Part shown: positions 43,279 through 60,997 of the stretch, in pieces
Layout: each line of letters opens with the position of its first letter
Numbering within the stretch: position 1 is the first letter of the stretch
Origin: Alphaproteobacteria bacterium
Lineage (GTDB): Bacteria > Pseudomonadota > Alphaproteobacteria > JAPYRI01
Assembly: GCA_029941135.1 (NCBI GenBank)
Contig: JAPYRI010000005.1
Location: 1-60,997, forward strand
Direction of reading: 5' to 3'
DNA: 60,997 nucleotides
Made by a program: the position numbers and the translations under genes
The notes under the pieces: generated by a model
What the model was told of the DNA's origin: nothing
The model's database searches: none
Seen by the model: only the letters and a program-made list of their open reading frames with translations

Positions 43279-44022
43279 ATGTCGAATTCAAACGTAAAAG
43301 CCGCGCGCCGGACCCTCGACTTGCTGGAAGTATTCAGCTCCCGAAGAGAACCCATGTCCCTCACCGAACTGGCGACCGAAATTGGCGCCCCAAAAACCAG
43401 CTGTTTTGAGCTTCTTCAGACCTTAAAGGCACGCGGGTACTTGTATGCTTTAGGCCCCCGGCGCGGATACTATCCAACCCGGCGTTTTCTCGACCATGCG
43501 CAAGTCATAACCGAGAGCGACCCGGTGTTAAAACGTCTGGGATCAGCGCTCAAAAATCTGCGCGATGCAACCGGCGAAACGGTCATTCTGGGCAAGCAAC
43601 AGGGTAATGAAGTTGTCTATCTTCAGGTGATTGAGGGCCGTCAAAGCATTCGCTACTCGGCCCAGGCTGGCGACCAAAAACCCCTTCATTCCAGCGCCAT
43701 CGGAAAAGCATTTTTGGCTCAATTGAATGAAAGTGATCTCGACAATTTGCTCGCATCCCTGCCACTCAAGCAAATCACCTCGAAGACGTTCACCAACCAT
43801 GCTCGCCTTCAAGCCGACCTCGAGAGGGGCCGAAAACTGGGGTATTTTGTGACCCGGGGAGAAAACGTTGCAGACGTGACAGCCGTTGCAACGACCTTGT
43901 ATATTCATAGCGAGCCTTTTGGTGTTGCCGTCGCAGGACCGAGCGGACGTATGGATGCCGGTTTGGACACCGTATCCGCCAAACTGTTATCCCTAAAAGC
44001 GTCTGAGGAGAAAGCGCAGTGA
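43279..44022 (+). CDS. IclR family transcriptional regulator
   Basis: N-terminal HTH (SLTELATEIGAPKTS), TGETV and PLHSSAIGKAFLA. Confidence 0.93.
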   Translation: MSNSNVKAARRTLDLLEVFSSRREPMSLTELATEIGAPKTSCFELLQTLKARGYLYALGPRRGYYPTRRFLDHAQVITESDPVLKRLGSALKNLRDATGETVILGKQQGNEVVYLQVIEGRQSIRYSAQAGDQKPLHSSAIGKAFLAQLNESDLDNLLASLPLKQITSKTFTNHARLQADLERGRKLGYFVTRGENVADVTAVATTLYIHSEPFGVAVAGPSGRMDAGLDTVSAKLLSLKASEEKAQ

Positions 44023-44795
44023 GTAGCCACGACATCGTCGTATCGGTCGAAAATGACATCATCTTGCGGGTGACCGTCAACCGGTCTGAGAAGCGAAACG
44101 CTTTAAGCCGCAAAATTCTCAAATCGCTCGGCGAAATATTTGACGACTATTCGAGCCATGAAAATTTGCGGGTTGCTGTTTTGACCGGCGCGGGCGACAA
44201 AAGCTTTGCGGCAGGGGGTGATTTGAAGGATTTGAGTGTCTTACGCACACGGGAAGAGGCACGCGGTTTGGCGGATTTAGCCAAGAAGGCGCTTAACTCG
44301 GTGCGCAATTTTCCGGTGCCGGTGATCGCCGCACTGAATGGCAGTGCTATGGGCGGCGGCGCCGAATTGGCGATGGCGTGTGACTTTCGGGTTTCCACCA
44401 GGCACGCCCGCATTGGATTTGTGCAAGGGCGTCTCAATATTTCGACGGCATGGGGTGGCGGCGTAGACCTCATGAAATTGGTCGGTCCCAGCAAAGCCCT
44501 CGACCTGTTGTGCCGCAGCAGTATGCTTACCGCTGACGCTGCGTTGGCGATCGGGCTTATCGACCGGATTGCCGACGAGGACGAAGAGCTCGGTCATTGC
44601 GTAACCAATTTTCTGCAACCCTACCTACTGCAGGTGCCGCAAGTTTTGCGCGCGTTCAAGTCACTAACTATCGGCGCACGCCGCGGGTTACAACGAGCCG
44701 ATTTGGACGAAACTGAAACCGAGCAATTTGTCGGCACCTGGGTCCACGACGATCATTGGGCCGCAGCCGACAACGTACTCAGCAAGGGAAAATAG
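44019..44795 (+). CDS. Enoyl-CoA hydratase/isomerase (crotonase) family protein
   Basis: NRSEKRNAL, FAAGGDL and ALNGSAMGGGAELAMACDFR. The second catalytic Glu position appears to be Gln (FVQGRL). Confidence 0.88.
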   Translation: MSSHDIVVSVENDIILRVTVNRSEKRNALSRKILKSLGEIFDDYSSHENLRVAVLTGAGDKSFAAGGDLKDLSVLRTREEARGLADLAKKALNSVRNFPVPVIAALNGSAMGGGAELAMACDFRVSTRHARIGFVQGRLNISTAWGGGVDLMKLVGPSKALDLLCRSSMLTADAALAIGLIDRIADEDEELGHCVTNFLQPYLLQVPQVLRAFKSLTIGARRGLQRADLDETETEQFVGTWVHDDHWAAADNVLSKGK

Positions 44796-44798
44796 GTG

Positions 44799-46424
44799 AT
44801 GACACCGCCCAGCAAAGCAGCTTCCACTAGTTCTGCGGCTACGAAAGAACTCCGGCGCACACCTTCAGGCATTGAAATTCCGCTGATCGCGACCCCGAAC
44901 ATGCGGCAGGGCACTCTGGAAACTCCAGGAGAGGCGCCCTTTACCCGTGGTATTTTTCCCGACGGGTACCGGGGACGCATGTGGACCATGCGCCAGTATT
45001 CGGGATTTGGGACCGCCGAAGAATCGAACGAACGCTACCAATTTCTGATGGAACAAGGTCAAACCGGTTTGTCGGTCGCCCTCGACTTGCCGACACAATG
45101 CGGCTACGACCCAACCGACCCCATGGCGTCGGCAGAGGTCGGCAAAGTCGGGGTATCGCTTTCTAACCTGCGCGAGTTCGAGATACTGTTCAACAACATC
45201 GAACTGGACCGGGTATCCACGTCATTTACCATCAACGGCACGGCAGCAATCGTCTATGCCATGTACGTGGCCGCCGCCGATAAGGCGGGCATTCCGCGCG
45301 ATAAACTAACCGGCACAATCCAAAACGACATCCTCAAGGAATATGTCGCGCGGGGCACCTGGATTTTCCCGGTTCGGCCCTCGATGCGCCTCATCGCCGA
45401 CAGTGTTTTGTTCGCCAACAAAGAAACGCCGCGTTTCAATCCCATCTCCATCGCCGGCGCCCATGTGCGTGACGCGGGTTGCAATGCGGCTGAAGAAATG
45501 GGCTACACCCTGGCCAACGGCGTCGCCTATGTGGAAGAACTTTTGCGGCGCGGTGGCGACGTCAACAAGTTCGCCAAACGGCTAAGTTTTTTCTTCTATG
45601 TCCACATGGATTTCTTTGAAGAAATATCAAAGTTCCGCGCGGCGCGCCGTGTATGGGCCAACATTATGAAAGATAAGTTTGGCGCCACAGACCCCAAGGC
45701 CCTGATGTTCCGGTTTGGCGTCGTGTGTGGCGGATCGTCGCTCACCGCCGCGCAACCGCTGAACAATGTGGTCCGGGTAGGCATCGAAAATATGGCGGCG
45801 GTTCTGGGTGGCGCTCAATCCATCTTCACCTGCGCGTTTGACGAAGCTTTTCAGATCCCGACTGAACAAAGTGCCGAGCTCGCCCTGCGCACACAACAAA
45901 TCGTGGCGCATGAAAGCGGCATCGCCGACTCGGTCGACCCCTTGGGTGGCAGTTATTTTGTCGAGCACATGACCGACCAGATGGAAGCGGAAATCCTCAA
46001 AGTCATGGCGGATATCGACGAATATGGAGGCGTCGAAAAAGCGATTGAGGAAGGCTACATCCAAATGAAGATCGCCCAACGTGCCCGCGAGCGAAAAGAA
46101 AAAGTCGATAACGGGGAACGAATTGTCGTTGGCGTAAACAAGTATCAGCGGGACGAAACTGACCAGGGGTTTGGCGAAGTGTTTGAATTGGACCCTTCCG
46201 CGCGTGACCGAATACTCGATAAGTATCAAATGGTTATGGATACCCGTGACAATACGGAAGCGCAGAAACTTCTGCAACGGCTGGGCACCGCCGCCGCCGC
46301 CGAGGGGGAAAATCTTTTGCCGTATATTGTCGATTGTTGTCATGGCTATGTGACGGTTGGGGAAATGGTCGGTGAGCTAAAAAGTCACTGGGGTGAATTT
46401 CAAGAACCGGTTCGCCTGACATAG
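44799..46424 (+). CDS. Cobalamin-dependent acyl-CoA mutase, large (substrate-binding) subunit
   Basis: WTMRQYSGFG, GLSVALDLPTQ, GTIQNDILKEY and LRTQQIVAHESG. No fused B12 domain. Confidence 0.92.
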   Translation: MTPPSKAASTSSAATKELRRTPSGIEIPLIATPNMRQGTLETPGEAPFTRGIFPDGYRGRMWTMRQYSGFGTAEESNERYQFLMEQGQTGLSVALDLPTQCGYDPTDPMASAEVGKVGVSLSNLREFEILFNNIELDRVSTSFTINGTAAIVYAMYVAAADKAGIPRDKLTGTIQNDILKEYVARGTWIFPVRPSMRLIADSVLFANKETPRFNPISIAGAHVRDAGCNAAEEMGYTLANGVAYVEELLRRGGDVNKFAKRLSFFFYVHMDFFEEISKFRAARRVWANIMKDKFGATDPKALMFRFGVVCGGSSLTAAQPLNNVVRVGIENMAAVLGGAQSIFTCAFDEAFQIPTEQSAELALRTQQIVAHESGIADSVDPLGGSYFVEHMTDQMEAEILKVMADIDEYGGVEKAIEEGYIQMKIAQRARERKEKVDNGERIVVGVNKYQRDETDQGFGEVFELDPSARDRILDKYQMVMDTRDNTEAQKLLQRLGTAAAAEGENLLPYIVDCCHGYVTVGEMVGELKSHWGEFQEPVRLT

Positions 46425-46438
46425 GGGAGAAACATGAC

Positions 46439-46834
46439 GTGTCGCTAAAAGGAAAACGAATATTGATCGCAAAGCCCGGTTTGGACGGTCACGACGTGGG
46501 CGCAAAGATCATTGCCCTCGCCTTGCGGGACGCAGGTGCGGACGTCATCTACACTGGTCTCAGAAAATCACCTGAATACATTGCGCGCATAGCGGTCGAT
46601 GAAGATGTGGACGCGGTGGGACTAAGTATCCTCTCAGGTTCTCACAATGAATTGGTCGCGGAAACCATAAAACTGCTCCGCGAGATGGATGCAGATGATG
46701 TCAAAATTTTTGTCGGGGGCACCGTTTCCGGCGACGACGTGCAAAAACTTAAAGTCGCTGGTGTGGCCGGTGTATTCACCAGCGAAATGAAAATCGAAGA
46801 TACCCTAGCTGAACTTTCCGACGTTCTAGGCTGA
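46439..46834 (+). CDS. Cobalamin-binding small subunit of the acyl-CoA mutase
   Basis: AKPGLDGHDVG (DxHxxG), GLSILSG and VGG. Confidence 0.93.
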   Translation: MSLKGKRILIAKPGLDGHDVGAKIIALALRDAGADVIYTGLRKSPEYIARIAVDEDVDAVGLSILSGSHNELVAETIKLLREMDADDVKIFVGGTVSGDDVQKLKVAGVAGVFTSEMKIEDTLAELSDVLG

Positions 46835-46838
46835 TCTG

Positions 46839-47546
46839 TTGCCGGGTGGATCTTCGCGCCGCCTTGCCGTTTGGATGCTGGCGGCTCTCGCCACTGCAAT
46901 TGCCGCCTTCATTGTTTACCTCATGATCCGATTTCCTGAGGCCTTATCGGATCGGGATTCTAAAATTGGCCTCACCCATCAACTGTTGTGGCTTCTTTTA
47001 TTGGTCAGCAGTTTTGCCGTTCGCTGGCGTACTTCACCTGGCGAAACCTTGCGCAACATTGCCATTTGGGTTGCCGTTGCCGCGACCATCGGCGCTGGTT
47101 ACAGTTTCCGCCATGAATTTGAAGCGGTTGGCAACCGCATGATGTTCGAACTTGTGCCTCATCGCGGTCAAGTGGCGAATAATCGCATTACTTTTCGCGC
47201 GCGAACTAGTGGACATTTTGTTGTCGAGGCGCTTGTTGACGGCACAGCTCTCAGGTTTCTCGTTGACACCGGTGCAACCGACGTGGTTCTCAGCCCCTCA
47301 GACGCTCAACTCTTGGGCTTTGATCTGAAGTCGCTCAAGTTTACGCGCGTTTACCACACGGCAAATGGAACAGTGCGAGGCGCACCTGTGCGTCTGCGGC
47401 AGATTACGTTAGGACCGATCGCAATGCGCGACGTCCGCGCATCCGTCAACGAAGCACCCATGACTTCTTCGCTGCTGGGCATGAGTTTTCTGAGCAGACT
47501 GTCCAGTTACAAGGTCAGTAAAGATACTCTCACCCTTACCCCTTAA
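46839..47546 (+). CDS. TIGR02281-type clan AA (retropepsin-like) aspartic protease, membrane-anchored
   Basis: TM helices, GHF, FLVDTGAT, TANG and SLLGMSFL. Start position uncertain. Confidence 0.85.
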   Translation: MPGGSSRRLAVWMLAALATAIAAFIVYLMIRFPEALSDRDSKIGLTHQLLWLLLLVSSFAVRWRTSPGETLRNIAIWVAVAATIGAGYSFRHEFEAVGNRMMFELVPHRGQVANNRITFRARTSGHFVVEALVDGTALRFLVDTGATDVVLSPSDAQLLGFDLKSLKFTRVYHTANGTVRGAPVRLRQITLGPIAMRDVRASVNEAPMTSSLLGMSFLSRLSSYKVSKDTLTLTP

Positions 47547-50083: not shown

Positions 50084-50794
50084 TTGGTAAAACCCTTTTT
50101 CGACACCGACAAATATACCCGCGAGCCGGCGTCCCCCACGGTGATTGCCTTTCATAAAGCGATCAAAGATCTGGTGCGCAGCCACATGGAAGCGGGCGGT
50201 AATTGGAACGCCTTTGTCTTTGGCGAGCAGGAAAACGTGGTCAACGCCGATGCCCTTCAAGCCATCGAAGATGCGTTTCTGAAAACCGGCTATCGGTATC
50301 AAGGCTCGGCAATGATTTCGATTGAGGAGGAGCCAGAAAAATACCAAATTTTGGCGACCGCCACCAACTCGGAAATTAAATTGCCGCCCCCGGATGCGAA
50401 CGGCCGCATCTTGTGCGGCACCGGCGACAATGTGGTCCAGTTTTCTGAAAATACCGTCGGGACAGCGCTATATGTGCGCACGAGCGAGCAGGTTCTTTCG
50501 CTGCTGGAAGACGGCGTGCCCGACAACACCATTGCCATCATTGACGACAGTGGTGGCACCTTGACTGCGCCCGTACTTGAGTACTTCAAAGGAGTTGTAT
50601 GCATGGGCGGCACGGTGCGCTCTCATTTGGGTATCCTGTGCCGGGAATACGGCATTCCATGTCTCATGAACTCTGGTGTTGCCGGCATCGAGGACGGCGA
50701 CGCGGTCGAGATGGAAACCTCCGCCGCCGCCAAAACTGCCGAGGCCTATCAGAAAAATATTGAGATGACCGCAAACATCTGGAAACAATGCTGA
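50084..50794 (+). CDS. Stand-alone PEP-utilising 'mobile' (swivel phospho-His) domain protein with an unknown N-terminal domain
   Basis: GVVCMGGTVRSHLGILCREYGIPC...GIEDGDAVEM resembles the GGxxSHxAIxAREYGIPAV phospho-His signature. TTG at 50084 follows GGAG. Confidence 0.8.
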   Translation: MVKPFFDTDKYTREPASPTVIAFHKAIKDLVRSHMEAGGNWNAFVFGEQENVVNADALQAIEDAFLKTGYRYQGSAMISIEEEPEKYQILATATNSEIKLPPPDANGRILCGTGDNVVQFSENTVGTALYVRTSEQVLSLLEDGVPDNTIAIIDDSGGTLTAPVLEYFKGVVCMGGTVRSHLGILCREYGIPCLMNSGVAGIEDGDAVEMETSAAAKTAEAYQKNIEMTANIWKQC

Positions 50795-50812: not shown

Positions 50813-52966
50813 GTGACCCTTCCCATTACTTACGCCCAATTATTGGAGACCAACAATCTGGTTCAGGCGTGCAACGACGAATCCTATTGGCTGTGCGTCA
50901 CCCGCACGGTACAAGAATCGAAGTTGTTCCCCGTACCCGCCTATATGTTGCTGTCCTACCTGATGGTCTACTACCGGTATCCTGAGCTGCTGCGCAAAAT
51001 CGAAACCAGCATGCGGGCTGAAGACATCGGCGACCGGTCACGCAACATGGGAATCAAAACCCAAGCGTCCCATATTGCCTGGTGCATGCCCGGATTTTAC
51101 CTTCTTGCGCGCGAATATCTGATCAGCATGGGCCTTATCCGTCCTCAAGACGGGGTCGAAGACTTGGTTTACCTGATGGATTTTTGGAAGCGGCATCAAC
51201 TGTCGTGGCATCGGAACGATGGTCACATCTCCAATAAGGAGTTCGGCCACCGGAGCCAAATCCTGCCTGAACGCCTGCTTCAAATTTTTGAAGCTGATTT
51301 ATTCGAATGCCGTCAGGGCGATAGCCTCCACGAAGCAGCGATGAAGTTCACGGCAACCGTCTCCCAGTATATTTTTCTCATTCACTGCGAAAGTCGAATC
51401 GGCCTCGCCAACACCGGGCCGTACAAGTTTGGTGACAACCGGGAGCTATTGGTCCGTGATTTTATGGACCTCTCCGAGGGCGACTATCCATGGATGGACG
51501 GGGTTGCAACCGACGTCCCCTACAACAATTTGACCATTCCCATGGTGGTCGAGGATTGCCATTTCTATTTGGTGGATGACTGGGCGAGCTTTGAATCCGA
51601 GCCCGAATTCAAAGCCGAGAAAGTCGTGAGCGTTGGCCTCTACACGTCGGACACGTTGAGTGAAGGCTACATGCCGGTCGGCATGGATAGCGCGGAAGAA
51701 CTCGCCAAAACTTTCGTCGATCTGAACGAGACCGTCAAAGAAGCCAGCGCCAAGCTGTGGAAGCGAATTGCCGGCTGGTCCCGGGAAGAGATGATGGACG
51801 CGGGCGCCCTCACCTATTTTTCGGTGATAAAGGACTTAGCCCACGTTGCCGGGGTTTATGAGTTCGATGATTGGATGACCATCGATGCGCGTGCCGAACG
51901 CTTCCGGCCTATATTGAATGATGAGTATGGCCGTGATTGCCTGGGTGAACTGCTCGGCTCGATGACCAACCCCAATCAACAGATAAATGAATATTCAATG
52001 ATGCAGCATTCCAATTTGCCGCAGCGTATGTTCTCCCACGTTCCCTATTCGATATTAGCGGACGGCGACTTCACCGCCACTTGCGGTAGAACGCAGGCAG
52101 GTACCAGTCACATGAGCGCCAAAACCGGTAAGTACCGAACGACACGGGGCTTGCTTGACTTGGACGACTACAATCGGCTTGCGCGCGATTTCACACCCAA
52201 GGTGTGTTCTGACAAATTTCGTTTCCTCGACGAAAATTGGGTCAAATACAATTACGACACGCCGCTTGCCGACGAACTTTACAGGGCGGAGCAAGAATCA
52301 TCTCGCAATCTGCAGGGCAAAGGCGCAGGTCTGAAGCGGGTTGACCTGCCACCTTCTCCCCCGCCAAGCGGCGATTTGCTCGCACTCCACGGATTAGCGA
52401 TCAAAAAGATGAGCACAGCTGACGTGGTTGCAGACATTCTTGGACTCGAGGTCACAGATGTATCAACCGCACTGGAAGCCGCCGTCGCTGCTCAGCAAGT
52501 TGCTATCGTAAGAGACGCCTTTATGTTGAAGCCTGCGGGGCAAGCGGCGCTCGACGCAGCCTACCCAAAAATGTTCGCGGGTTTGCGGGCAAGCGAAGAT
52601 TTCGTTGCTGCTTACGAGCGATTCGAAGTTGTAAATAACGATTTGAAGCAGTTGATTACCGACTGGCAAACCCTGGAAATTGCAGGCTCGAGGGTGCCCA
52701 ATGATCACAGCAACAAAGACTACGATGACGGCATTATCGATCGCTTGGGTACCTTGCATGATCGTGCGGAAACTGTGCTGGATGTCTTAGCGTTGGCCGA
52801 AACCCGGCTCGGCCGCTACACCGACAAATTGCTGGTGGCGCTTGAGAAATCCGAAGATGGCGAAACAGATTTCGTGAGCGGGGCCCGGGTCGAGTCCTAT
52901 CACACGGTTTGGTTTGAGTTACACGAAGATTTGCTGCGGATTTTGGGCCAAGAGCGGGACGAGTAG
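50813..52966 (+). CDS. 717-aa hypothetical fusion protein: ~510-aa unknown domain, Pro linker, ~200-aa wHTH/helical domain resembling mycobacterial Rv1126c
   Basis: Long ORF packed between operon genes. Linker PPSPPPS at about aa 513. The C-terminal AYERF..VN.DLKQLITDWQ...PNDH...YD...SYHTVWFELHEDL resembles, from memory, the protein encoded next to M. tuberculosis ppdK. Confidence 0.75.
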   Translation: MTLPITYAQLLETNNLVQACNDESYWLCVTRTVQESKLFPVPAYMLLSYLMVYYRYPELLRKIETSMRAEDIGDRSRNMGIKTQASHIAWCMPGFYLLAREYLISMGLIRPQDGVEDLVYLMDFWKRHQLSWHRNDGHISNKEFGHRSQILPERLLQIFEADLFECRQGDSLHEAAMKFTATVSQYIFLIHCESRIGLANTGPYKFGDNRELLVRDFMDLSEGDYPWMDGVATDVPYNNLTIPMVVEDCHFYLVDDWASFESEPEFKAEKVVSVGLYTSDTLSEGYMPVGMDSAEELAKTFVDLNETVKEASAKLWKRIAGWSREEMMDAGALTYFSVIKDLAHVAGVYEFDDWMTIDARAERFRPILNDEYGRDCLGELLGSMTNPNQQINEYSMMQHSNLPQRMFSHVPYSILADGDFTATCGRTQAGTSHMSAKTGKYRTTRGLLDLDDYNRLARDFTPKVCSDKFRFLDENWVKYNYDTPLADELYRAEQESSRNLQGKGAGLKRVDLPPSPPPSGDLLALHGLAIKKMSTADVVADILGLEVTDVSTALEAAVAAQQVAIVRDAFMLKPAGQAALDAAYPKMFAGLRASEDFVAAYERFEVVNNDLKQLITDWQTLEIAGSRVPNDHSNKDYDDGIIDRLGTLHDRAETVLDVLALAETRLGRYTDKLLVALEKSEDGETDFVSGARVESYHTVWFELHEDLLRILGQERDE

Positions 52967-52972
52967 TTCGGA

Positions 52973-54700
52973 ATGGAGTCGGCTGAGAACAAGAGGTCCG
53001 AGAACAAATGGGTAATGCGGCTCGACGGTGCGACCTTGCCCGACCGCGATCTGATCGGCGGTAAGGCGTGGAGCATAGCACGCCTGCGCAACCTGGGCTT
53101 GCCCACTTCACCCGCCGTTGCGGCTACCACCGAGGCATGCCGTGCCTTTATGAAAACTGGTGATCTCCCCGCTGGCCTGATGGACGAGCTTCGTGTCGGC
53201 ATTGAAGAGATTGAACACGAGACCGGACGAAAGTTTGGTGGCACTGAACATCCCTTGCTGGTCGCGGTCAGATCGGGTGCGCCGATCAGCATGCCAGGCA
53301 TGATGGACACAGTGCTCAATTTAGGCATGACAGATGCGGTCGAACTGGCACTGGCACAAGAAAGCGGCGATCCGGAATTTGCCGCCGACACCCGGCGTCG
53401 ATTTCTCGAACTTTACGACACCATTGTGCTCAAAAATTCCGGTGCCGAGGTGCCGGAAACTGCCGACGCGCAGTTGGCAGGTGCCGTACGCGCCGTGTTT
53501 GAGTCGTGGAATTCCCGGCGCGCTAAACGTTATCGCAAACACAACGGCATCCCCGACGACCTTGGTACAGCGGTTACAATTCAGGCCATGGTGTTCGGAA
53601 ACCTAGACGATCAGAGCGGCACTGGTGTTTTATTCAGCCGCAATCCCTTGACCGGCGACCCCGCACCCTACGGCGAATATCTCGCTTGTGCGCAAGGAGA
53701 AGACGTGGTGTCAGGCAAAGTGACGCCGCAGCCGCTTTCCGCCCTAGAGGCCGCCCAACCGGGCGCCCACAAAGAATTGTTGAAGGCGGCCGCCTTATTG
53801 GAGTGTGAAAGCGGCGACGTTCAGGATATCGAGTTCACCATCCAACAGGGCAAATTGTATTTGCTCCAATCGCGGTCGGCCAAAAGATCGCCCTCTGCGG
53901 CCGTTCGCTTTGCCATCGATTTCGTGCGCGAAGGAAAGATCGACAAAAGTGAAGCCTTGCGCCGGGTGACATCCGAACAAATACGCACTTTGCTTCGCCC
54001 GCGTCTTGAAGACGGAGCTGACAACCGCCCTAAGCCTGTCGCGGTAGGTGAAGCTGCTTGTCAGGGTGTTGGTGTTGGTGTTGTCGTGACCGCCGCGGAC
54101 AGCGCCGAGGCCGAAGCCGCAAAGGGCCACAAAGTTATACTTGCCCGCCCCACCACCAGCCCCGAAGACGTGCATGGCATGCTGGTTGCCGAAGCCGTCA
54201 TCACCGAACAAGGGGGGCCAACTTCCCATGCAGCGGTGGTCAGTCGGGCGTTGGGTTTACCCTGTGTGGTCGGATGCGGCGATGGTGCGTTGACCAACCT
54301 CGGTGGCCAGACTGTCACCGTGGATGGCGAAAAAGGGCACGTTTATGACGCGGTATTACCGGTAAAAGTGCCGGACGAAAGGGAAGAAGGCGGCCTCAGC
54401 GACCTCATTAATTGGGCTTCTGAGATTTCCCCCGTGGTGGTGTACAGCGCTTCTGACGCCCTACCTGAAAGTCTAGGTGATGCCGACATTGTTGATTTGG
54501 ATCACTTGACCGATGGTGAAGACTCCGATCATATCGCTCGCTTACTTAATGGTGCGATTGCTGCCCGGGGCAGCATCCTGAATTCGGACGCAGGCGTGTC
54601 CGCCGCGATAAGATCCGGTGTCAAAACCATCATTGTCCGCCACACCCTACCGGCCCTCCTGGCCGCGTGCGCGAATACGGATACCATTACAGAAACTTGA
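52973..54700 (+). CDS. Truncated pyruvate phosphate dikinase-like protein (ATP-grasp and phospho-His domains, no PEP/pyruvate barrel)
   Basis: GGKA, VRSGAPISMPGMMDTVLNLG, QAMVFGN, AQGEDVVSG, QDIEFT..GKLYLLQSR and GGPTSHAAVV. Only 575 aa; none of the C-terminal PPDK motifs are present. Confidence 0.88.
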   Translation: MESAENKRSENKWVMRLDGATLPDRDLIGGKAWSIARLRNLGLPTSPAVAATTEACRAFMKTGDLPAGLMDELRVGIEEIEHETGRKFGGTEHPLLVAVRSGAPISMPGMMDTVLNLGMTDAVELALAQESGDPEFAADTRRRFLELYDTIVLKNSGAEVPETADAQLAGAVRAVFESWNSRRAKRYRKHNGIPDDLGTAVTIQAMVFGNLDDQSGTGVLFSRNPLTGDPAPYGEYLACAQGEDVVSGKVTPQPLSALEAAQPGAHKELLKAAALLECESGDVQDIEFTIQQGKLYLLQSRSAKRSPSAAVRFAIDFVREGKIDKSEALRRVTSEQIRTLLRPRLEDGADNRPKPVAVGEAACQGVGVGVVVTAADSAEAEAAKGHKVILARPTTSPEDVHGMLVAEAVITEQGGPTSHAAVVSRALGLPCVVGCGDGALTNLGGQTVTVDGEKGHVYDAVLPVKVPDEREEGGLSDLINWASEISPVVVYSASDALPESLGDADIVDLDHLTDGEDSDHIARLLNGAIAARGSILNSDAGVSAAIRSGVKTIIVRHTLPALLAACANTDTITET

Positions 54701-54710
54701 GGATTGTGGC

Positions 54711-55193
54711 TTGGATCAAACAAAGAACAATATTCGTGCGCTAGTAAGATTGTTCGAGCAATCGGACTGGGATGAACTACGCGTTGAAACCAAAGACTTA
54801 AAGCTCGTAATTTCGAAAAATGCGAACGCACCTGGCCTGACGGTTTTAGAGAATGCACCACGCACACGATTGCCCAGTACCGCGGACGCCGAAATCACGG
54901 ATGCGACTGAACCCGCCGCCAAAAGCGAACCGGCTGAAATTCCTGAAGGATTGGTGGCGGTGCGGGCACCCAATTTGGGCACCTTTTGGCGCGCCCCCAA
55001 ACCTGGCGCCGCGCCCTATATCGAAGTTGGGCAAAAAGTAAATGCCGACACGATGGTGTGCTTGATCGAAGTGATGAAGTTGTTCACCCCAATAAATGCG
55101 GGAATTGCTGGCACCGTCGTCGAACTTGTCGCTGAGAACAGCGCCATGGTCGAATACGGCGATACCCTTGTCCTCATTGATCCCAGCACTTGA
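54711..55193 (+). CDS. Biotin carboxyl carrier protein
   Basis: APNLGTFWRAPKPG, IEVMKL (biotin Lys) and VEYG. TTG at 54711 follows GAGG. Confidence 0.92.
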   Translation: MDQTKNNIRALVRLFEQSDWDELRVETKDLKLVISKNANAPGLTVLENAPRTRLPSTADAEITDATEPAAKSEPAEIPEGLVAVRAPNLGTFWRAPKPGAAPYIEVGQKVNADTMVCLIEVMKLFTPINAGIAGTVVELVAENSAMVEYGDTLVLIDPST

Positions 55194-55214: not shown

Positions 55215-56585
55215 ATGAACCTCTCGCGTGTATTTGTCGCCAATCGGGGAGAAATCGCGGTGCGAGTGCTGCGCGCTTGTCGCAAGCTTGAGCTCTCTTC
55301 AGTAATTGGCGTGTCGGAGGCCGACCAGGAAAGCACCGGGGCAATGATGGCTGATCGTGCAATTGTTATAGGCCCAGCTCCCTCAAAGGACAGCTACCTC
55401 AAGCCAGACCTCATCGTTTCGGCAGCGGTAAACAGCGGTTGCGATGCGCTTCATCCTGGCTATGGTTTCTTGTCTGAACGCGGTGAACTGGCCGAAATGT
55501 GTGCCGAAAACGGGATCGCTTTCGTTGGCCCCACAGCCGATACCATTCGTAAAGTGGGCGATAAAATTTCTGCCAGGGAACTAGCCCGCGCGGCCGGAGT
55601 TCCCCTGGTTCCCGGATCCGGCGAAGTGTCCACTGTGGAGCAGGCCAAATCAGCGGCAAGCGACGTGGGTTATCCTATCGTACTGAAAGCGACCGCCGGC
55701 GGCGGCGGGCGTGGTATGGCAGTCGCCCGGGCGGACGAAGACATTGCGAGAACTTTCGACGCCGCGTCCTTAGAAGCCGAAGAAGCGTTCGGCGACGGCA
55801 CTCTTTACGTGGAACGCTTTGTTGAGAACGCCCGCCATGTGGAAGTTCAGATATTGGGTGACGGCAAAGGCAACGTGCTTCATTTCGGCGACCGGGATTG
55901 TTCAGCCCAGCGGCGTTATCAAAAAGTCGTGGAAGAAGCCCCCGCAACTGCTGTGCCGGATGATATTCGCACGAACATGCGTGAAGCTGCCGTGCGCTTG
56001 GCCAAAAGTATCAATTACCGCAATGCGGGCACCGTCGAATTTCTCTACGATCAAAACCACAATGCGTTCTACTTCATCGAAGTGAATGCGCGCATCCAAG
56101 TCGAACATCCGGTCACCGAAGAGATTACCGGCGTTGATCTGGTGGTCGCGCAACTCAAAATCGCGGCCGGCGAACCCCTCGGGTTAACTCAAGACATGAT
56201 CGCACTCAGCGGACACGCCATCGAATGCCGGATCAACGCCGAAATGCCGCTGCGGGACTTCGCGCCATCGCCTGGACGAATTACCGCCTGGTTGCCACCC
56301 GAGGGCGACGGCGTACGTGTCGATAGTCATTGCGAGCAGGGCTACACGGTTCCGCCCTATTATGACAGCATGATTGGGAAGCTGATCGTCCACGGCGCGA
56401 CCCGCACGGAAGCCATATCGCGCATGCGTGGCGCGCTCGCCGATTTCCGCATCGATGGCATACATACCAATACCCACTTGCAAGCCTTTCTGGTGGGCCA
56501 TCGGGATTTCAAAGACAATAAAATTAACACCAAATGGCTGGAGACAACTCTCCTGCCCGCGTATTCAAGCGTAATGGGAGATTAG
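55215..56585 (+). CDS. Biotin carboxylase
   Basis: ANRGEIA, HPGYGFLSE, GGGGRGM, RDCSAQRRYQK, EVNARIQVEHPVTE and YYDSMIGKL. Confidence 0.95.
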   Translation: MNLSRVFVANRGEIAVRVLRACRKLELSSVIGVSEADQESTGAMMADRAIVIGPAPSKDSYLKPDLIVSAAVNSGCDALHPGYGFLSERGELAEMCAENGIAFVGPTADTIRKVGDKISARELARAAGVPLVPGSGEVSTVEQAKSAASDVGYPIVLKATAGGGGRGMAVARADEDIARTFDAASLEAEEAFGDGTLYVERFVENARHVEVQILGDGKGNVLHFGDRDCSAQRRYQKVVEEAPATAVPDDIRTNMREAAVRLAKSINYRNAGTVEFLYDQNHNAFYFIEVNARIQVEHPVTEEITGVDLVVAQLKIAAGEPLGLTQDMIALSGHAIECRINAEMPLRDFAPSPGRITAWLPPEGDGVRVDSHCEQGYTVPPYYDSMIGKLIVHGATRTEAISRMRGALADFRIDGIHTNTHLQAFLVGHRDFKDNKINTKWLETTLLPAYSSVMGD

Positions 56586-56591
56586 ATCGGA

Positions 56592-58061
56592 ATGGCGGTA
56601 ATTGAGTTTCTTGATGAGACCATGCGAGACGGGCAGCAAAGCCTGTGGGGCATGCGCATGCAGGCGGGCATGGCGCTGCCCATTACCCCCACCATCGACA
56701 AGGTTGGTTTTCGGGTCGTTGACCTCACCGGCAGCTCCATGTTCGAAGTGCTGATCCGCCATTGCCAGGAAAACCCCTGGGAGGGCCTCGATCTATTAGT
56801 CAGTTCCATGCCCAACAGCAAAATCCGTGCGGGTATGCGCAGTAACGCGGCAGTGACCTTTGGGGTGACCCCCGACGCTTTAATGGATGTGTGGATGCAT
56901 CAGCTCTGCCGTCACGGCATCAAGAGCATGTGGATTTATGACGTCCTGTTCAACATCGACAAGACCTACCGATTGGCAAAGATCGCCAAGGAATATGATG
57001 TCGAAGTGGCGGGCGCGATCATGTTCACCATGAGCCCCGTGCACACCGACGCACACTACGCAGACAAGGCGCAGAAGCTCGCTGCATGCGCGGATATCGA
57101 CACCCTGTTACTCTACGACACGGCTGGCGTTTTGGGCCCGGAGCGTTTGCGCACCCTGGTGCCGGCTCTCATTGAGCAGGCCAACGGTAAGCCGATCGAA
57201 TTTCACTCGAACAATATACTGGGCGCGTCAGCCATTGCTTATCTGGAGGCGGTCAAGTTGGGCGTCACCATTTTGCATACTGCAAGTCGTCCCATGGCCA
57301 ACGGCCCTTCGGTGCCATCGACCGAGATTATGGTGCGGAACATCGAATTGCTAGGACACAGCCATGGTCTAGATACGTCGTTGTTGCCGCCCATTGCCGA
57401 ACATTTCGAAAAAGTTGCCTCAGCCGCCGGTTTCCCAACAGGCGTGCCCAATGAGTATGATTTGTTTTCAATCGAGCATCAGATCCCCGGCGGCATGGTC
57501 GGCACCTTTAAGGCCCAACTCGATCAGCACAAAATGCCGGAAAAACTGGACGAAGTGCTGGCAGAATCTGCCATCGTCCGGCGCGAACTGGGTTACCCTG
57601 GCATGGCGACCCCGTTTTCGCAATTGGTGGGCACGTTGGCGGTGCTGAACGTGGTGACCGGCAAGCGCTATACAGTCATCCCGGACGAGGTGATCCAATA
57701 CGCCGCCGGATACTACGGTGACCCGGTTGCACCGATCGATCCGAACGTATTGGACATCATTATGGGCTCGGCTCGCGCCAAGGAAATTCTGACCTCTCCG
57801 CCAGCCCAGCCCAGTCTTGAGGACTTAAGAAAAGAGTTCGGCACCGGCGATGACGACGACGAGCTCATCTTGCGGGCTCTGGTTCCCGAAGCCGATCTGG
57901 ATAAAATGCGCGCAGCCGGGCCAGTCAAACAAACTTATCCTATGCTGTCATCGCCAGAGCTTGAATACGCGCGCAAACTGATGGCCAGCACCAGCGCCAA
58001 TTTTCTTGAAATCGAAACCACCGACCTGTCGCTGTCGTTGCGCCGAGGCCCAAACTCTTAG
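56592..58061 (+). CDS. Carboxyltransferase of the pyruvate carboxylase B / oxaloacetate decarboxylase alpha / XccA type, with atypical metal site
   Basis: DETMRDGQQSL, HQIPGGM and LGYPGMATPFSQ. The KD motif reads YD and the HxH motif reads HSN. Confidence 0.85.
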   Translation: MAVIEFLDETMRDGQQSLWGMRMQAGMALPITPTIDKVGFRVVDLTGSSMFEVLIRHCQENPWEGLDLLVSSMPNSKIRAGMRSNAAVTFGVTPDALMDVWMHQLCRHGIKSMWIYDVLFNIDKTYRLAKIAKEYDVEVAGAIMFTMSPVHTDAHYADKAQKLAACADIDTLLLYDTAGVLGPERLRTLVPALIEQANGKPIEFHSNNILGASAIAYLEAVKLGVTILHTASRPMANGPSVPSTEIMVRNIELLGHSHGLDTSLLPPIAEHFEKVASAAGFPTGVPNEYDLFSIEHQIPGGMVGTFKAQLDQHKMPEKLDEVLAESAIVRRELGYPGMATPFSQLVGTLAVLNVVTGKRYTVIPDEVIQYAAGYYGDPVAPIDPNVLDIIMGSARAKEILTSPPAQPSLEDLRKEFGTGDDDDELILRALVPEADLDKMRAAGPVKQTYPMLSSPELEYARKLMASTSANFLEIETTDLSLSLRRGPNS

Positions 58062-58128: not shown

Positions 58129-59349
58129 ATGGCGAATCCGAGCAAGACTCTGTTTTCCGGGTTGCGAATCCTCGACTTGACCCGGGCCGTCGCCGGACCC
58201 ACATGCACGCGCATGTTCTCTGAGCTGGGGGCGGACGTGATTAAAGTGGAGGCTTTTCCGGAAGGTGATCTGACCCGTCAGGTATCCAAAATCAGAAACG
58301 AGCGAAGTCTGTACTTCGTTCAGCAAAATCTTGGCAAAAAAAGCCTATGCGTTGATCTGCGCAATCCGAAAGGTCTGCAATTGGTCAAGGATTTAGTGCC
58401 ATTGGTCGATGTCGTGGTGCAAAACTTCAAGCCCGGGGTGATGGCGTCAATGGGGATGGCCTACGACGATCTGAAGGAGCTAAAGCAAGACATTATCTTG
58501 TGCTCGATATCGTCGCTCGGTCAGACCGGCTCACTTGCTGAAAAGCCCGGCTACGACATGATCGCCCAATCTTACGCGGGCGTAACATCGATGGTCGGTG
58601 ACCCGGACGATGCACCTTGCTTTCCCCAATTGGCGATCGGCGACGTCAGCACCGGTGTCATGGGAGCTTTCTCAGTGCTCGCCGCCCTCTATCACCGGGA
58701 CCGTACCGGCGAAGGTCAACACTTGGACGTGAGCATTCTCGACACTTACTACCATAGCCACGAAGCAAGCGTTCATCAGTACAGCGGCAGCAACGGTAAG
58801 ATCGAACCCAACAGAACCGGTCGCCATATGAATTATTTGGCCCCAGCCGGCGTTTTTCGCGCCAATGGAGGCTATATCACGATCATGTCTTTCCTCCATC
58901 ACTGGAAGGATTTATGCGCGGCAATGGACCGCCCCGAATTGGCAGAAGACGAAAGATTAGGAAACGATGAAGGCCGCCTCGAGAATTTGGATGAAGTCAT
59001 TGAGTTGATCGAAAGCTGGCTCCAGAATTTTCCGGACCGGGATACCGCAATGGACAAACTTGACGAATTTGGTGTGCCGGCGGGCCCTGTCTTAACGATC
59101 GCCGAAACAGTCGCCCATCCTCACCTTCGAGAGCGAGGGACTGTGCGCACAATTGATGATCGGATTGCGGGAAAATTCGAGATCCCCGGCTTGCCGCCGA
59201 AGTTCTCAAAGTTCCCCGACTTGCCCGAGTTCGATGCGCCTACTTTGGGTGAGCACAACGAAGAGATTATAACCAATATCCTGGGTCGTTCAGACGACGA
59301 GCTTGCTGAGTTAAGGAATGCCGGGATCCTAAAAGAGAAAAATATTTGA
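58129..59349 (+). CDS. Class III (CaiB/BaiF) CoA-transferase, copy 1
   Basis: ILDLTRAVAGP, GADVIKVE, NLGKKS, NFKPG, GYD, IGD (catalytic Asp) and PTLGEHN. Confidence 0.93.
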   Translation: MANPSKTLFSGLRILDLTRAVAGPTCTRMFSELGADVIKVEAFPEGDLTRQVSKIRNERSLYFVQQNLGKKSLCVDLRNPKGLQLVKDLVPLVDVVVQNFKPGVMASMGMAYDDLKELKQDIILCSISSLGQTGSLAEKPGYDMIAQSYAGVTSMVGDPDDAPCFPQLAIGDVSTGVMGAFSVLAALYHRDRTGEGQHLDVSILDTYYHSHEASVHQYSGSNGKIEPNRTGRHMNYLAPAGVFRANGGYITIMSFLHHWKDLCAAMDRPELAEDERLGNDEGRLENLDEVIELIESWLQNFPDRDTAMDKLDEFGVPAGPVLTIAETVAHPHLRERGTVRTIDDRIAGKFEIPGLPPKFSKFPDLPEFDAPTLGEHNEEIITNILGRSDDELAELRNAGILKEKNI

Positions 59350-59396: not shown

Positions 59397-60617
59397 ATGA
59401 CCGGCGCGACTGAACCACTTTTCGAGGGCCTCAAAATACTCGACTTTACACGCGCCCTCGCAGGCCCAACCTGTACCCGCATGTTTGCTGAAATGGGCGC
59501 CGATGTGATCAAGGTCGAGTCGGCGCCAAACGGCGATCTAACCCGTCAAATGTCTAAGATACGGAATGATCGCAGCCTTTATTACATTCAGCAAAATCTT
59601 GGCAAACAAAGTCTTTGTGTAAATTTACGTGACCCTCGCGGCATCGCTCTCATGAAAGAACTCGTTCCCCATATGGATGTGGTGGTTGAAAACTTTAAGC
59701 CGGGCCGGATGGCATCCATGGGACTGGATTATGAAGCGCTCAAAGAACTGAAAGAGGACATCATTCTGTGTTCAATTTCGGCCATGGGGCAAACTGGCCC
59801 GCTGGCAACAAAACCAGGTTACGATTACATCGCCCAAGCCTATACCGGCGTCACTTCCATGATCGGCGATCCTAATGACGCACCCTCTATCCCACTTTTG
59901 GGCATCGGCGATGTCGCCACGGGCGTGCATGGGGCGTTTGCTGTTTTGGCGGCAATTTATCACCGGGAAAGAACCGGTCGGGGGCAGCATTTGGATGTTG
60001 CCCTGGCCGATGTTTATTACCATTGTCACGAAGTGAACGTGCACCAGTACACGGGCAGCAATGGTGAGATTAAGCCGACCCGCGGCGGTCGCCACATGAG
60101 CTACGTGTGCCCGGCTGGGGTGTTTCGCGCCAATGGCGGCGACATCATGATCATGGCGTTTCTCCATCACTTTAAGGATTTATGCGCGGCCATGGACCGC
60201 CCGGAATTGGTCACTAAAGAAGGGTGGACAACCGACCAGGAACGCTTGGCCAGGTTGGATGAAGTTGTGGCACTGGTCGAAACTTGGCTTCAGACTTTTC
60301 CTAGCCACTGGGACGCGATTGCAAAGATGGAAGAGCACGGCGTTCCCGTGGCGCCCATTCTGACCGTAGAAGACACGATCACTCACCCACACTTGCTACA
60401 TCGGGGTACGATCCGCACAATTAACGACCGGCTCGCGGGCGAATTCGGCATTCCCGGGATGCCGATTAAGTTTTCCGAATTTCCTGAGGATTTGCCCTTG
60501 GAGGCTGACACCCTGGGCCAGCACAATGCGCATATAATCACCGAGGTTTTGAATCACAGCGAAGAAGAATTGGCCCAATTACGCGCCGATGGAATATTGA
60601 ACGAAGGGGAGTTCTAA
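59397..60617 (+). CDS. Class III (CaiB/BaiF) CoA-transferase, copy 2
   Basis: Same motifs as copy 1, same 406-aa length and colinear with it. Confidence 0.93.
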   Translation: MTGATEPLFEGLKILDFTRALAGPTCTRMFAEMGADVIKVESAPNGDLTRQMSKIRNDRSLYYIQQNLGKQSLCVNLRDPRGIALMKELVPHMDVVVENFKPGRMASMGLDYEALKELKEDIILCSISAMGQTGPLATKPGYDYIAQAYTGVTSMIGDPNDAPSIPLLGIGDVATGVHGAFAVLAAIYHRERTGRGQHLDVALADVYYHCHEVNVHQYTGSNGEIKPTRGGRHMSYVCPAGVFRANGGDIMIMAFLHHFKDLCAAMDRPELVTKEGWTTDQERLARLDEVVALVETWLQTFPSHWDAIAKMEEHGVPVAPILTVEDTITHPHLLHRGTIRTINDRLAGEFGIPGMPIKFSEFPEDLPLEADTLGQHNAHIITEVLNHSEEELAQLRADGILNEGEF

Positions 60618-60637
60618 TCGTCTCAATCGCCGTCCTC

Positions 60638-60985
60638 ATGATAAGGAAATCAGCCAGACTCTCGATGGGCATTCTATTGTGCGGTCTGGTTTGGCCACAA
60701 ATTTCCGAAGCCAATGACTTTCCAACTGAAGCGCGGGCAGAATATGTCATCGCCTGCATGTCCGGCACCGGAGAAAACGCCCGAAGTCTGAGACACTGTG
60801 CATGCGCCGTCGATCGCATTGCCGCTGAATTGAAGTACGATCAGTATGTTGCCGCTGAGACCGTTCTGCGCATGCGCAAAATGAACGGCGAAAAAGGATC
60901 GTTGTTTCGAGAGTCTGACAGTCTGACAAAAACCGTAAAAGCCTTGGATAGTGCAGTGACAGAAGCGAAGAAGGGATGCTTTTAA
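60638..60985 (+). CDS. Small exported Cys-rich hypothetical protein
   Basis: Signal peptide ending in SEA, then NDFPTEARAEYVIACM...HCACAVD...GCF (four Cys in the mature part). Confidence 0.7.
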   Translation: MIRKSARLSMGILLCGLVWPQISEANDFPTEARAEYVIACMSGTGENARSLRHCACAVDRIAAELKYDQYVAAETVLRMRKMNGEKGSLFRESDSLTKTVKALDSAVTEAKKGCF

Positions 60986-60997
60986 CGGGTAGAAATC

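Follow-up and report, generated by a model that had tools for sequence, protein, structure and literature searches.

The window analysed here is a 60,997-nucleotide stretch of contig JAPYRI010000005.1 from the genome assembly of an Alphaproteobacteria bacterium (GCA_029941135.1). An open reading frame (ORF) at 50813-52966 on the forward strand opens with a GTG codon and encodes a 717-aa protein with two domains. This protein is probably the fused substrate-handling part of a four-component dikinase that is derived from pyruvate phosphate dikinase (PPDK) and primes a ketone-like substrate for biotin-dependent carboxylation. An earlier description of the gene made from the letters of the DNA (the sequence-only reading) had proposed a two-domain fusion, and this layout is borne out, with residues 1-510 and 520-717 as the two domains.

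50813..52342, + strand: N-domain, residues 1-510; an uncharacterised, strongly conserved family and the proposed phosphoryl-acceptor/substrate site served by the swivel His
52343..52369, + strand: Pro/Ser-rich inter-domain linker (VDLPPSPPPS region), which differs in length and sequence among fused relatives
52370..52966, + strand: C-domain, residues 520-717 plus stop; a winged helix and helical bundle of the truncated-PPDK partner family, with a terminal SYHTVWFELHEDL

The motifs quoted by the sequence-only reading are located at residues 132-138 (WHRNDGH), 191-195 (HCESR), and 200-204 (NTGPY). The PPSPPPS linker corresponds to residues 513-519 (nucleotides 52349-52369), exactly where it had been placed, and SYHTVWFELHEDL corresponds to residues 695-707 at the end of the C-domain. 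The richness in Trp, Tyr, His, and Cys ascribed to the N-domain is modest only, at 2.0% W, 5.3% Y, 2.4% H, and 1.8% C over the 510 residues.

The fusion is genuine and not an assembly artefact because independent contigs span the linker and four other protein clusters are fused in the same way. Contigs from three runs that belong to three other studies (X7, 52096-52650; X8, 52295-52587; X9, 52288-52727) cross the junction with zero indels. The four clusters are 81-89% identical to the window protein and 717-723 aa long, and their linkers vary in length and sequence. A merger of two separate genes by assembly or gene calling would agree with the fact that 63 of the 64 related loci with both domains encode them at a distance or on different genes, but the spanning contigs, the fused clusters, and the genuine fusions in other genomes leave this explanation next to no probability. 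Whole-genome matches include both true N-C fusions with no internal stop and adjacent pairs with one stop.

The fused gene is embedded in a same-strand cluster that encodes the other proposed components of the system.

50084..50794 (ORF listed from 50012), + strand: swivel phospho-His carrier protein, 236 aa, with a C-terminal PEP-utilizers mobile domain (PF00391, E 3.5e-7) and the motif GGTVRSHLG
52973..54700, + strand: truncated PPDK of the VadK/PRK05878 type, with ATP-grasp and swivel-His (GGPTSHAAV) parts and no phosphoenolpyruvate (PEP)/pyruvate-binding domain
54618..55193, + strand: biotin carboxyl carrier protein (BCCP), listed ORF, with an 83-nucleotide overlap with the PPDK end (54618-54700)
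55215..56585, + strand: biotin carboxylase (BC) subunit, from Pfam/NCBIfam matches
56592..58061, + strand: PycB/OadA-type carboxyltransferase with HMGL-like and PYC_OADA domains, below every NCBIfam equivalog cut-off
58129-59349 and 59397-60617, + strand: two family-III CoA-transferases, 67% identical to each other, that sit where related loci use an AMP-forming CoA ligase

The swivel protein likely starts at TTG 50084 because GGGAG lies upstream, the preceding gene is not overlapped, homologues are ~247 aa, and similarity starts near residue 22-25. Its His is invariant in 22/22 aligned sequences. The true start of the BCCP is probably further downstream than the listed one. The truncated PPDK scores 693.4 bits against NF004531 (cut-off 456) over profile positions 6-531 of 534 and 54 bits against the rifampin phosphotransferase model; Pfam finds only PF01326 (PPDK_N) and PF00391 (swivel). 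The nearest solved relatives of the carboxyltransferase are pyruvate carboxylase beta, oxaloacetate decarboxylase alpha, and transcarboxylase 5S.

The cluster is conserved in related genomes. When one genome per species was scanned, 328 stretches proved to encode an N-domain relative, and the best 80 loci were retained. All 80 come from Alpha-, Beta-, or Gammaproteobacteria and include Roseiarcus fermentans, Rhodosalinus halophilus, and Marinibaculum pumilum. tblastn with the window proteins shows a conserved order of swivel protein, N-domain, a gene of ~490-520 aa, C-domain, truncated PPDK, BCCP, BC, and carboxyltransferase, the last at 55-78% identity. The swivel protein is present in 78, the C-domain in 64, and the truncated PPDK in 62 of the 80 loci. 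In 50 loci 8.5 kb or more lie beyond the N-domain, and 47 of these have all six partners; L020 and L053 are without a BC match and L057 is without four of the partners. The gap between the N-domain and the C-domain has a median of 1570 nucleotides and is below 200 nucleotides in 1/63 loci (L054). An ORF for an AMP-binding acyl-CoA synthetase/CoA ligase fills it in 62/63, with PF00501 confirmed on L056. The separate-gene homologues that the sequence-only reading had suggested looking for are the common state, and the two genes are mostly split by this ligase gene. A 718-aa ORF in the Roseiarcus locus L036 (11517-13673) was considered as a second fusion and rejected; residues 1-520 come from a spurious high-GC frame read across the ligase gene.

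In the window lineage there is no ligase gene, its two usual neighbours are fused, and the CoA-transferases follow the carboxylase. The window genome has no orthologue of the intervening ligase, and the best matches there are paralogues at 33-35% identity. Beyond the carboxyltransferase, the annotated loci have a thiolase (4/4) and a short-chain dehydrogenase/reductase (SDR; 3/4), and phosphatase genes lie near related loci, of the PF13350 type in 24/90 and SurE-like in 39/90. In an even sample of the window's class, 5/301 genomes carry the N-domain, the window genome counted. A second genome set, labelled the order of G301, has a match in 70/81 genomes; it seems enriched in carriers, and this is not a prevalence figure.

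The complex between the N-domain (45-row alignment) and the swivel protein (22-row alignment) was modelled. Three runs gave an ipSAE of 0.87, and the highest of three controls was 0.00. The 0.87 level is reached by 116/157 solved complexes and 2/215 mismatched pairs, a calibration that is rough because custom alignments were used. Contacts agree between runs to 77% or more, and the partner has a pLDDT of 84 or above. On the swivel side the confident interface comprises residues 175-181 and 184-190, which contain the invariant His181, and on the N-domain side it comprises residues 31-42, 184-195, and 359-376, segments that are rich in invariant residues. The models support binding of the swivel protein to the N-domain with the His loop in the interface.

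The N-domain was suspected in the sequence-only reading to match no recognised family, and it lies outside any characterised family in Pfam, NCBIfam, and PDB sequence and fold searches. Neither the N-domain nor the C-domain has a Pfam or NCBIfam match at E ≤ 0.01, and each half has at E ≤ 10 a single weak Pfam match that is under the curated cut-off. A PDB sequence search gave no match at E ≤ 1. The Pfam model of the PEP-utilizers C-terminal domain (the PPDK TIM barrel) does not match residues 1-510 even at E ≤ 10. The whole protein has 1066 homologues at E ≤ 1e-3 among 7851 candidates; those among the 120 listed are either fused (~717-748 aa) or N-domain-only (~512-536 aa, 62-68% identity). 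The mean column identity of the N-domain is 76% (25 sequences). With the N-domain as query, phmmer run exhaustively over 1.84 billion representatives returned 454 matches at E ≤ 1e-3, among them 360-390-aa proteins with 25-33% identity that span roughly N-domain residues 25-360.

The N-domain model is confident (pLDDT 90.4, pTM 0.91) and consists of long helices and one mixed sheet. Fold searches used the complete 510-residue model, which is above 400 residues and whose sub-domains were not folded singly. The best E that Foldseek reached with the whole model was 0.16, at TM ≤ 0.12. In VIA-align with the whole model, 7 of 48,161 chains had Z ≥ 2, the best with Z 2.4 and a root-mean-square deviation (rmsd) of 5.4 Å over 100 aligned residues. 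No TIM-barrel or RPH-like PDB match appeared in these searches of the whole model, an absence of match that is not an exclusion. The predicted fold is likely new.

The C-domain belongs to a larger family. Residues 520-717 have 2687 shorter homologues at E ≤ 1e-3 among 4373 candidates, and those among the 120 listed are mostly 193-216 aa with 53-64% identity. The mean column identity is 70% (17 sequences), and the columns of the C-terminal motif SYHTVWFELHE(D/E)L are invariant in 17/17 aligned sequences; the invariant columns include an N-D-H triplet in addition to the SYH.VWFELHED motif. The AF2 model of residues 520-717 (pLDDT 94.6) fits the winged helix-turn-helix plus helical domain that the sequence-only reading had called, with a MarR-like winged helix at domain residues 1-70 followed by a generic helical bundle. 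The winged helix aligns with MarR-family structures at Z 10-11.4 and an rmsd of 1.0-1.9 Å over 65-70 residues (6pco_A: Z 11.1, 1.0 Å over 70 residues), and Foldseek on the model gives a probability of 1.00 with an E of 0.06. A profile search of the PDB with the C-domain gave 8 matches with a best E of only 0.023, and the MarR Pfam models do not match it even at E ≤ 10. The ESM Atlas returned only clusters of 196-201 aa that are unnamed or called 'transcriptional regulator' and are commonest in Actinomycetota, which is a lead only.

The C-domain gene adjoins the truncated PPDK gene in 62/62 loci with both genes and also on plasmids of Rhodococcus pyridinivorans and Mycobacterium branderi. The M. 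branderi plasmid pJCM12687 encodes a 522-aa truncated PPDK, 48% identical to the window kinase (E 3e-143), and after it a 200-aa protein named 'MarR family', which is 43% identical to the C-domain over 119 residues (E 4e-28). This alignment contains SYHTVWFELHEEL, the motif that the sequence-only reading had given for a mycobacterial protein. By this homology the C-domain is a member of the ~200-aa family that partners truncated VadK-type PPDKs, the mycobacterial comparison having been made with the M. branderi homologue; the M. branderi pair is the closest stand-in here for the Mycobacterium tuberculosis VadK/Rv1126c pair.

In PMC13400623, Rv1127c is VadK, a His kinase described in 2025-26 that autophosphorylates on His422 and is without a PEP/pyruvate domain; its proposed role is to bind MCS/MCD and so tune the methylcitrate cycle. 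The same paper gives Rv1126c as the operonic partner whose co-expression raises VadK solubility and which a 2 M NaCl wash separates from VadK. The sequence-only reading had called the mycobacterial pair functionally unexplained, a view that PMC13400623 makes partly outdated. Full-text literature searches, supplements aside, returned nothing on the two domain families or the operon except VadK papers, which name Rv1126c as the operonic partner of VadK.

Fusions recur across the N-domain family. A tree of 52 hand-picked N-domain rows (IQ-TREE quick search, SH-aLRT support only, midpoint root) places fused N-C rows in several separate supported groups, and their linkers are unrelated. In the window clade 5/5 rows are fused with a support of 100. 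Other fused groups are P0008/P0010, which is sister to the adjacent-but-unfused L054, and a Burkholderia-type clade of 5 rows; further fused rows occur in the type-2 clade described below, where fused and adjacent genes are mixed, and as P0243 inside the type-3 clade. The swivel domain is also joined to the N-domain in places. A Pfam scan of distant N-domain homologues found an N-terminal PF00391 swivel domain in 4/34 (P0293, P0305, P0380, P0315), no Pfam match in 29/34, and a weak DUF match in 1/34, and a 577-aa Rhodococcus 'PEP-utilizing enzyme' has the same build of swivel plus N-core. Repeated fusion or fission of N and C argues for a physical partnership. The Rosetta-stone inference of the sequence-only reading is supported by the recurrent N-C fusions in several clades, the swivel/N-core fusions, and the conserved gene order.

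Many genomes hold two or more sets of the module, and the N-domain and carboxyltransferase paralogues co-occur. Type-2 clusters encode swivel, N, and C (adjacent or fused), an optional carboxyltransferase, and an SDR, with a PF13350 phosphatase upstream and no PPDK, BC, or BCCP within 20 kb. Type-3 clusters additionally hold BCCP, BC, and two carboxyltransferases. Just downstream of one type-2 cluster lies a TIR-domain protein (L119, 13037-14287, - strand) that is probably unrelated. Plasmid pA of R. pyridinivorans carries a complete operon, to which an OB-fold protein and a thiolase are added, and a gene annotated as 'tyrosine-protein phosphatase' lies within the operon. Its proteins are 43% (swivel), 54% (N-domain), 47% (C-domain), 53% (PPDK), 51% (BC), and 50% (carboxyltransferase) identical to those of the window, and its ligase is 52% identical to the L056 ligase, the window being without one. 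The plasmid (L126; 2235-7029 and 8199-20104) is mobilizable and bears a further set, in which swivel and N-core are fused in a protein whose only annotation is 'PEP-utilizing enzyme'.

Two genomes of the window's class contain a distantly paralogous set (L094, G271:C4, 4800-11446; L095, G113:C1, 3531-10012) made up of a swivel protein, an N-core protein of 474/502 aa, a C-domain-like protein of 192 aa, and a PPDK_N plus swivel protein of 835-843 aa, without biotin genes. The swivel protein is 137 aa in L094, and its ORF is not resolved in L095. The 835-843-aa proteins have ~330 extra C-terminal residues. The next gene in this set encodes a methane-monooxygenase gamma-chain plus EthD domain protein, and an ankyrin/Sel1 repeat protein is nearby.

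The proposed mechanism would start with the truncated PPDK, whose ATP-grasp domain and own swivel His would take a phosphoryl group from ATP. The C-domain would dock this kinase onto the N-domain with its bound swivel protein. The phosphoryl group would then reach the swivel His, through the kinase His, directly, or by both routes, and be transferred to a small substrate in the N-domain pocket. The phosphorylated substrate would be carboxylated by the adjacent BCCP, BC, and PycB-type carboxyltransferase, and the acid product would be converted to a CoA ester by the CoA-transferases here and by the AMP-forming ligase elsewhere, for cleavage by a thiolase. The logic would be that of the Hpe/Acv route compared below, in which a methyl ketone is phosphorylated and then carboxylated, with another kinase. 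A further and more tentative proposal is that the N-domain is a new phosphotransfer catalytic fold and that the four-part set is ancestral, the mycobacterial VadK/Rv1126c pair having been cut down from it. If so, the partner would be a docking adaptor that hands the kinase phosphoryl to a separate acceptor, and the tuberculosis kinase would also have a docked acceptor still to be found.

Several points weigh against the four-component dikinase. The presumed association of the C-domain with the kinase comes from the M. tuberculosis literature (PMC13400623) and from adjacency, and the roles of the operon members are read from genes and models. VadK is itself proposed in PMC13400623 as a regulator that binds methylcitrate-cycle enzymes and not as a small-molecule kinase. 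Two swivel-His carriers per system are unexplained, with a His-to-His relay only presumed, and the predicted winged helix of the C-domain could bind DNA. The window operon has no phosphatase, no ligase, and no orthologous thiolase up to the contig end at 60997. Type-2 and type-3 clusters have swivel, N, and C and no truncated PPDK within 20 kb, and the kinase would therefore act in trans.

Three other functions were weighed against the dikinase. One is a regulatory phosphorelay built from the 717-aa protein, the swivel protein, and the truncated PPDK, which would sense a metabolite through its N-domain and adjust the carboxylase or pathway enzymes by phosphorylating or binding them. The description of VadK as a regulatory His kinase interacting with MCS/MCD (PMC13400623) fits such a relay, as do the two phospho-His carriers, which look like one, and the swivel/N/C triads that have no kinase nearby. 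The strict operon order within catabolic clusters (47/50 loci) makes a relay improbable, together with the joint movement of the N-domain and carboxyltransferase paralogues, the enzyme-like conservation of the N-domain, and phosphatase, ligase, and thiolase genes that suit a pathway of intermediates.

It is unlikely that the protein is a one-component transcription factor in which the N-domain senses a ligand and the C-domain winged helix binds DNA to control the operon. RefSeq does call some family members 'MarR family transcriptional regulator', and C-domain residues 1-70 superpose on MarR-family winged helices with Z about 11. The MarR Pfam models fail to match, however, the invariant residues are mostly in the helical bundle and the C-terminal motif, and the family adjoins the truncated PPDK wherever both genes are present. 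The M. tuberculosis member is reported to co-purify with VadK (PMC13400623), the gene cluster is already headed by an IclR regulator, and in the predicted complex the swivel protein contacts the N-domain through its His loop. The chance is smaller again that the system is a true split PPDK/PEP synthase, in which the N-domain replaces the PEP/pyruvate domain and PEP is made from pyruvate for a pyruvate/PEP carboxylase. The kinase is PPDK-derived and the solved relatives of the carboxyltransferase listed above would suit such an enzyme, but the N-domain has no sequence match to any Pfam family, the PEP-utilizers C-terminal domain included, and the carboxyltransferase is under all pyruvate-carboxylase cut-offs (326 versus 402 bits). 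The genome also has a separate full-length PPDK of 894 aa elsewhere, and CoA ligase/transferase, thiolase, and SDR genes are linked to the system.

The same-strand run upstream of the swivel gene comprises an IclR regulator, an enoyl-CoA hydratase, a B12-dependent mutase pair, a clan-AA aspartic protease, a P450, and an LLM oxidoreductase. The enoyl-CoA hydratase and the split methylmalonyl-CoA-mutase-like pair (a 542-aa large subunit and a 131-aa B12-binding subunit) occupy 44019-46834 (+ strand) in this IclR-headed run, and the mutase pair may be part of the same pathway. The aspartic protease (46839-47546, + strand; TIGR02281/gag-asp_proteas) lies between the B12-binding mutase subunit and the P450 and is an odd neighbour in a catabolic run. 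Downstream, the contig ends 380 nucleotides past the last gene. An orthologue of the SDR that closes the operon in other loci, 55% identical, lies on a tiny separate contig of the same genome (G000 contig C119:219-992), and the end of the operon may have been lost in an assembly gap after 60618-60997. The window genome (3.0 Mb) also has ten genes of the Hydantoinase_B (acetone-carboxylase) family on ten contigs, which is large for the genome size, and several of them are 750-820 aa, as in acetone/acetophenone-carboxylase-type subunits. With these ten genes present, the window genome shows no either/or pattern between the operon and classical ketone carboxylases.

The proposal gives a concrete testable role to two unannotated families of about 1000 and 2700 homologues, the N-domain being found in 328 species genomes, and would extend the 'phosphorylate, then carboxylate' route to a PPDK-derived kinase architecture. 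It offers comparative evidence that the ~200-aa partner of VadK-type kinases ties the kinase to a phosphoryl-accepting module, which bears on how a kinase reported necessary for tuberculosis virulence finds its target. The N-domain is a good target for structure determination, as its model matched no solved relative. The N-C fusion, the absence of the ligase with CoA-transferases after the carboxylase, and the comparison with the M. branderi pair are what this window contributes.

VadK/Rv1126c resembles the present system in having a truncated PPDK without the PEP/pyruvate domain, a catalytic swivel His, and a ~200-aa partner gene beside it. In the window, unlike VadK/Rv1126c, a carboxylase operon encodes the partner domain in one polypeptide with a 510-aa domain. 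No N-domain, BCCP, BC, or carboxyltransferase gene follows the M. branderi pair, and the M. tuberculosis pair lies beside prp genes and is a proposed methylcitrate-cycle regulator. PPDK, PEP synthase, and PTS enzyme I share with the present system an ATP-grasp domain and a swivelling phospho-His domain that carries phosphoryl between distant sites. They differ from it in that here the third, substrate domain is an unrelated 510-aa domain on another polypeptide instead of the PEP/pyruvate TIM barrel, and there are two swivel-His carriers, not one.

Judged from published descriptions, the closest known system appears to be the Hpe/Acv/Xcc route of Rhodococcus rhodochrous GD02 (HpeHI, HpeCBA, HpeD, HpeE, HpeF), Sphingobium sp. 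SYK-6 (AcvAB, AcvCDE, AcvF), and Aromatoleum aromaticum EbN1 (Xcc). A dikinase (HpeHI/AcvAB) phosphorylates a hydroxyphenyl methyl ketone, and a three-subunit biotin carboxylase acts on the acetyl group of the phosphorylated substrate only. HpeHI/AcvAB are two-component enzymes that resemble phenylphosphate synthase and rifampin phosphotransferase (PMC12167813), and AcvE is 26% identical to PycB according to a preprint. The kinases differ in build: here there is a PPDK-type ATP-grasp/His protein with a separate swivel protein, the new N-domain, and a domain of the PPDK-partner type. The window has no HAD phosphatase, and the phosphatases linked to the system in other loci are of the PF13350 or SurE-like kind; a thiolase stands in for the hydrolase, and the substrate need not be aromatic. 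Shared by Hpe/Acv and the present operon are a three-subunit biotin carboxylase (BCCP, BC, and PycB-type carboxyltransferase) and, on the proposed reading, an ATP-dependent dikinase. The CoA-activating and beta-ketoacyl-CoA-cleaving enzymes of Hpe/Acv have counterparts in the ligase and thiolase of related loci, which often also have a phosphatase, and the window operon has the two CoA-transferases.

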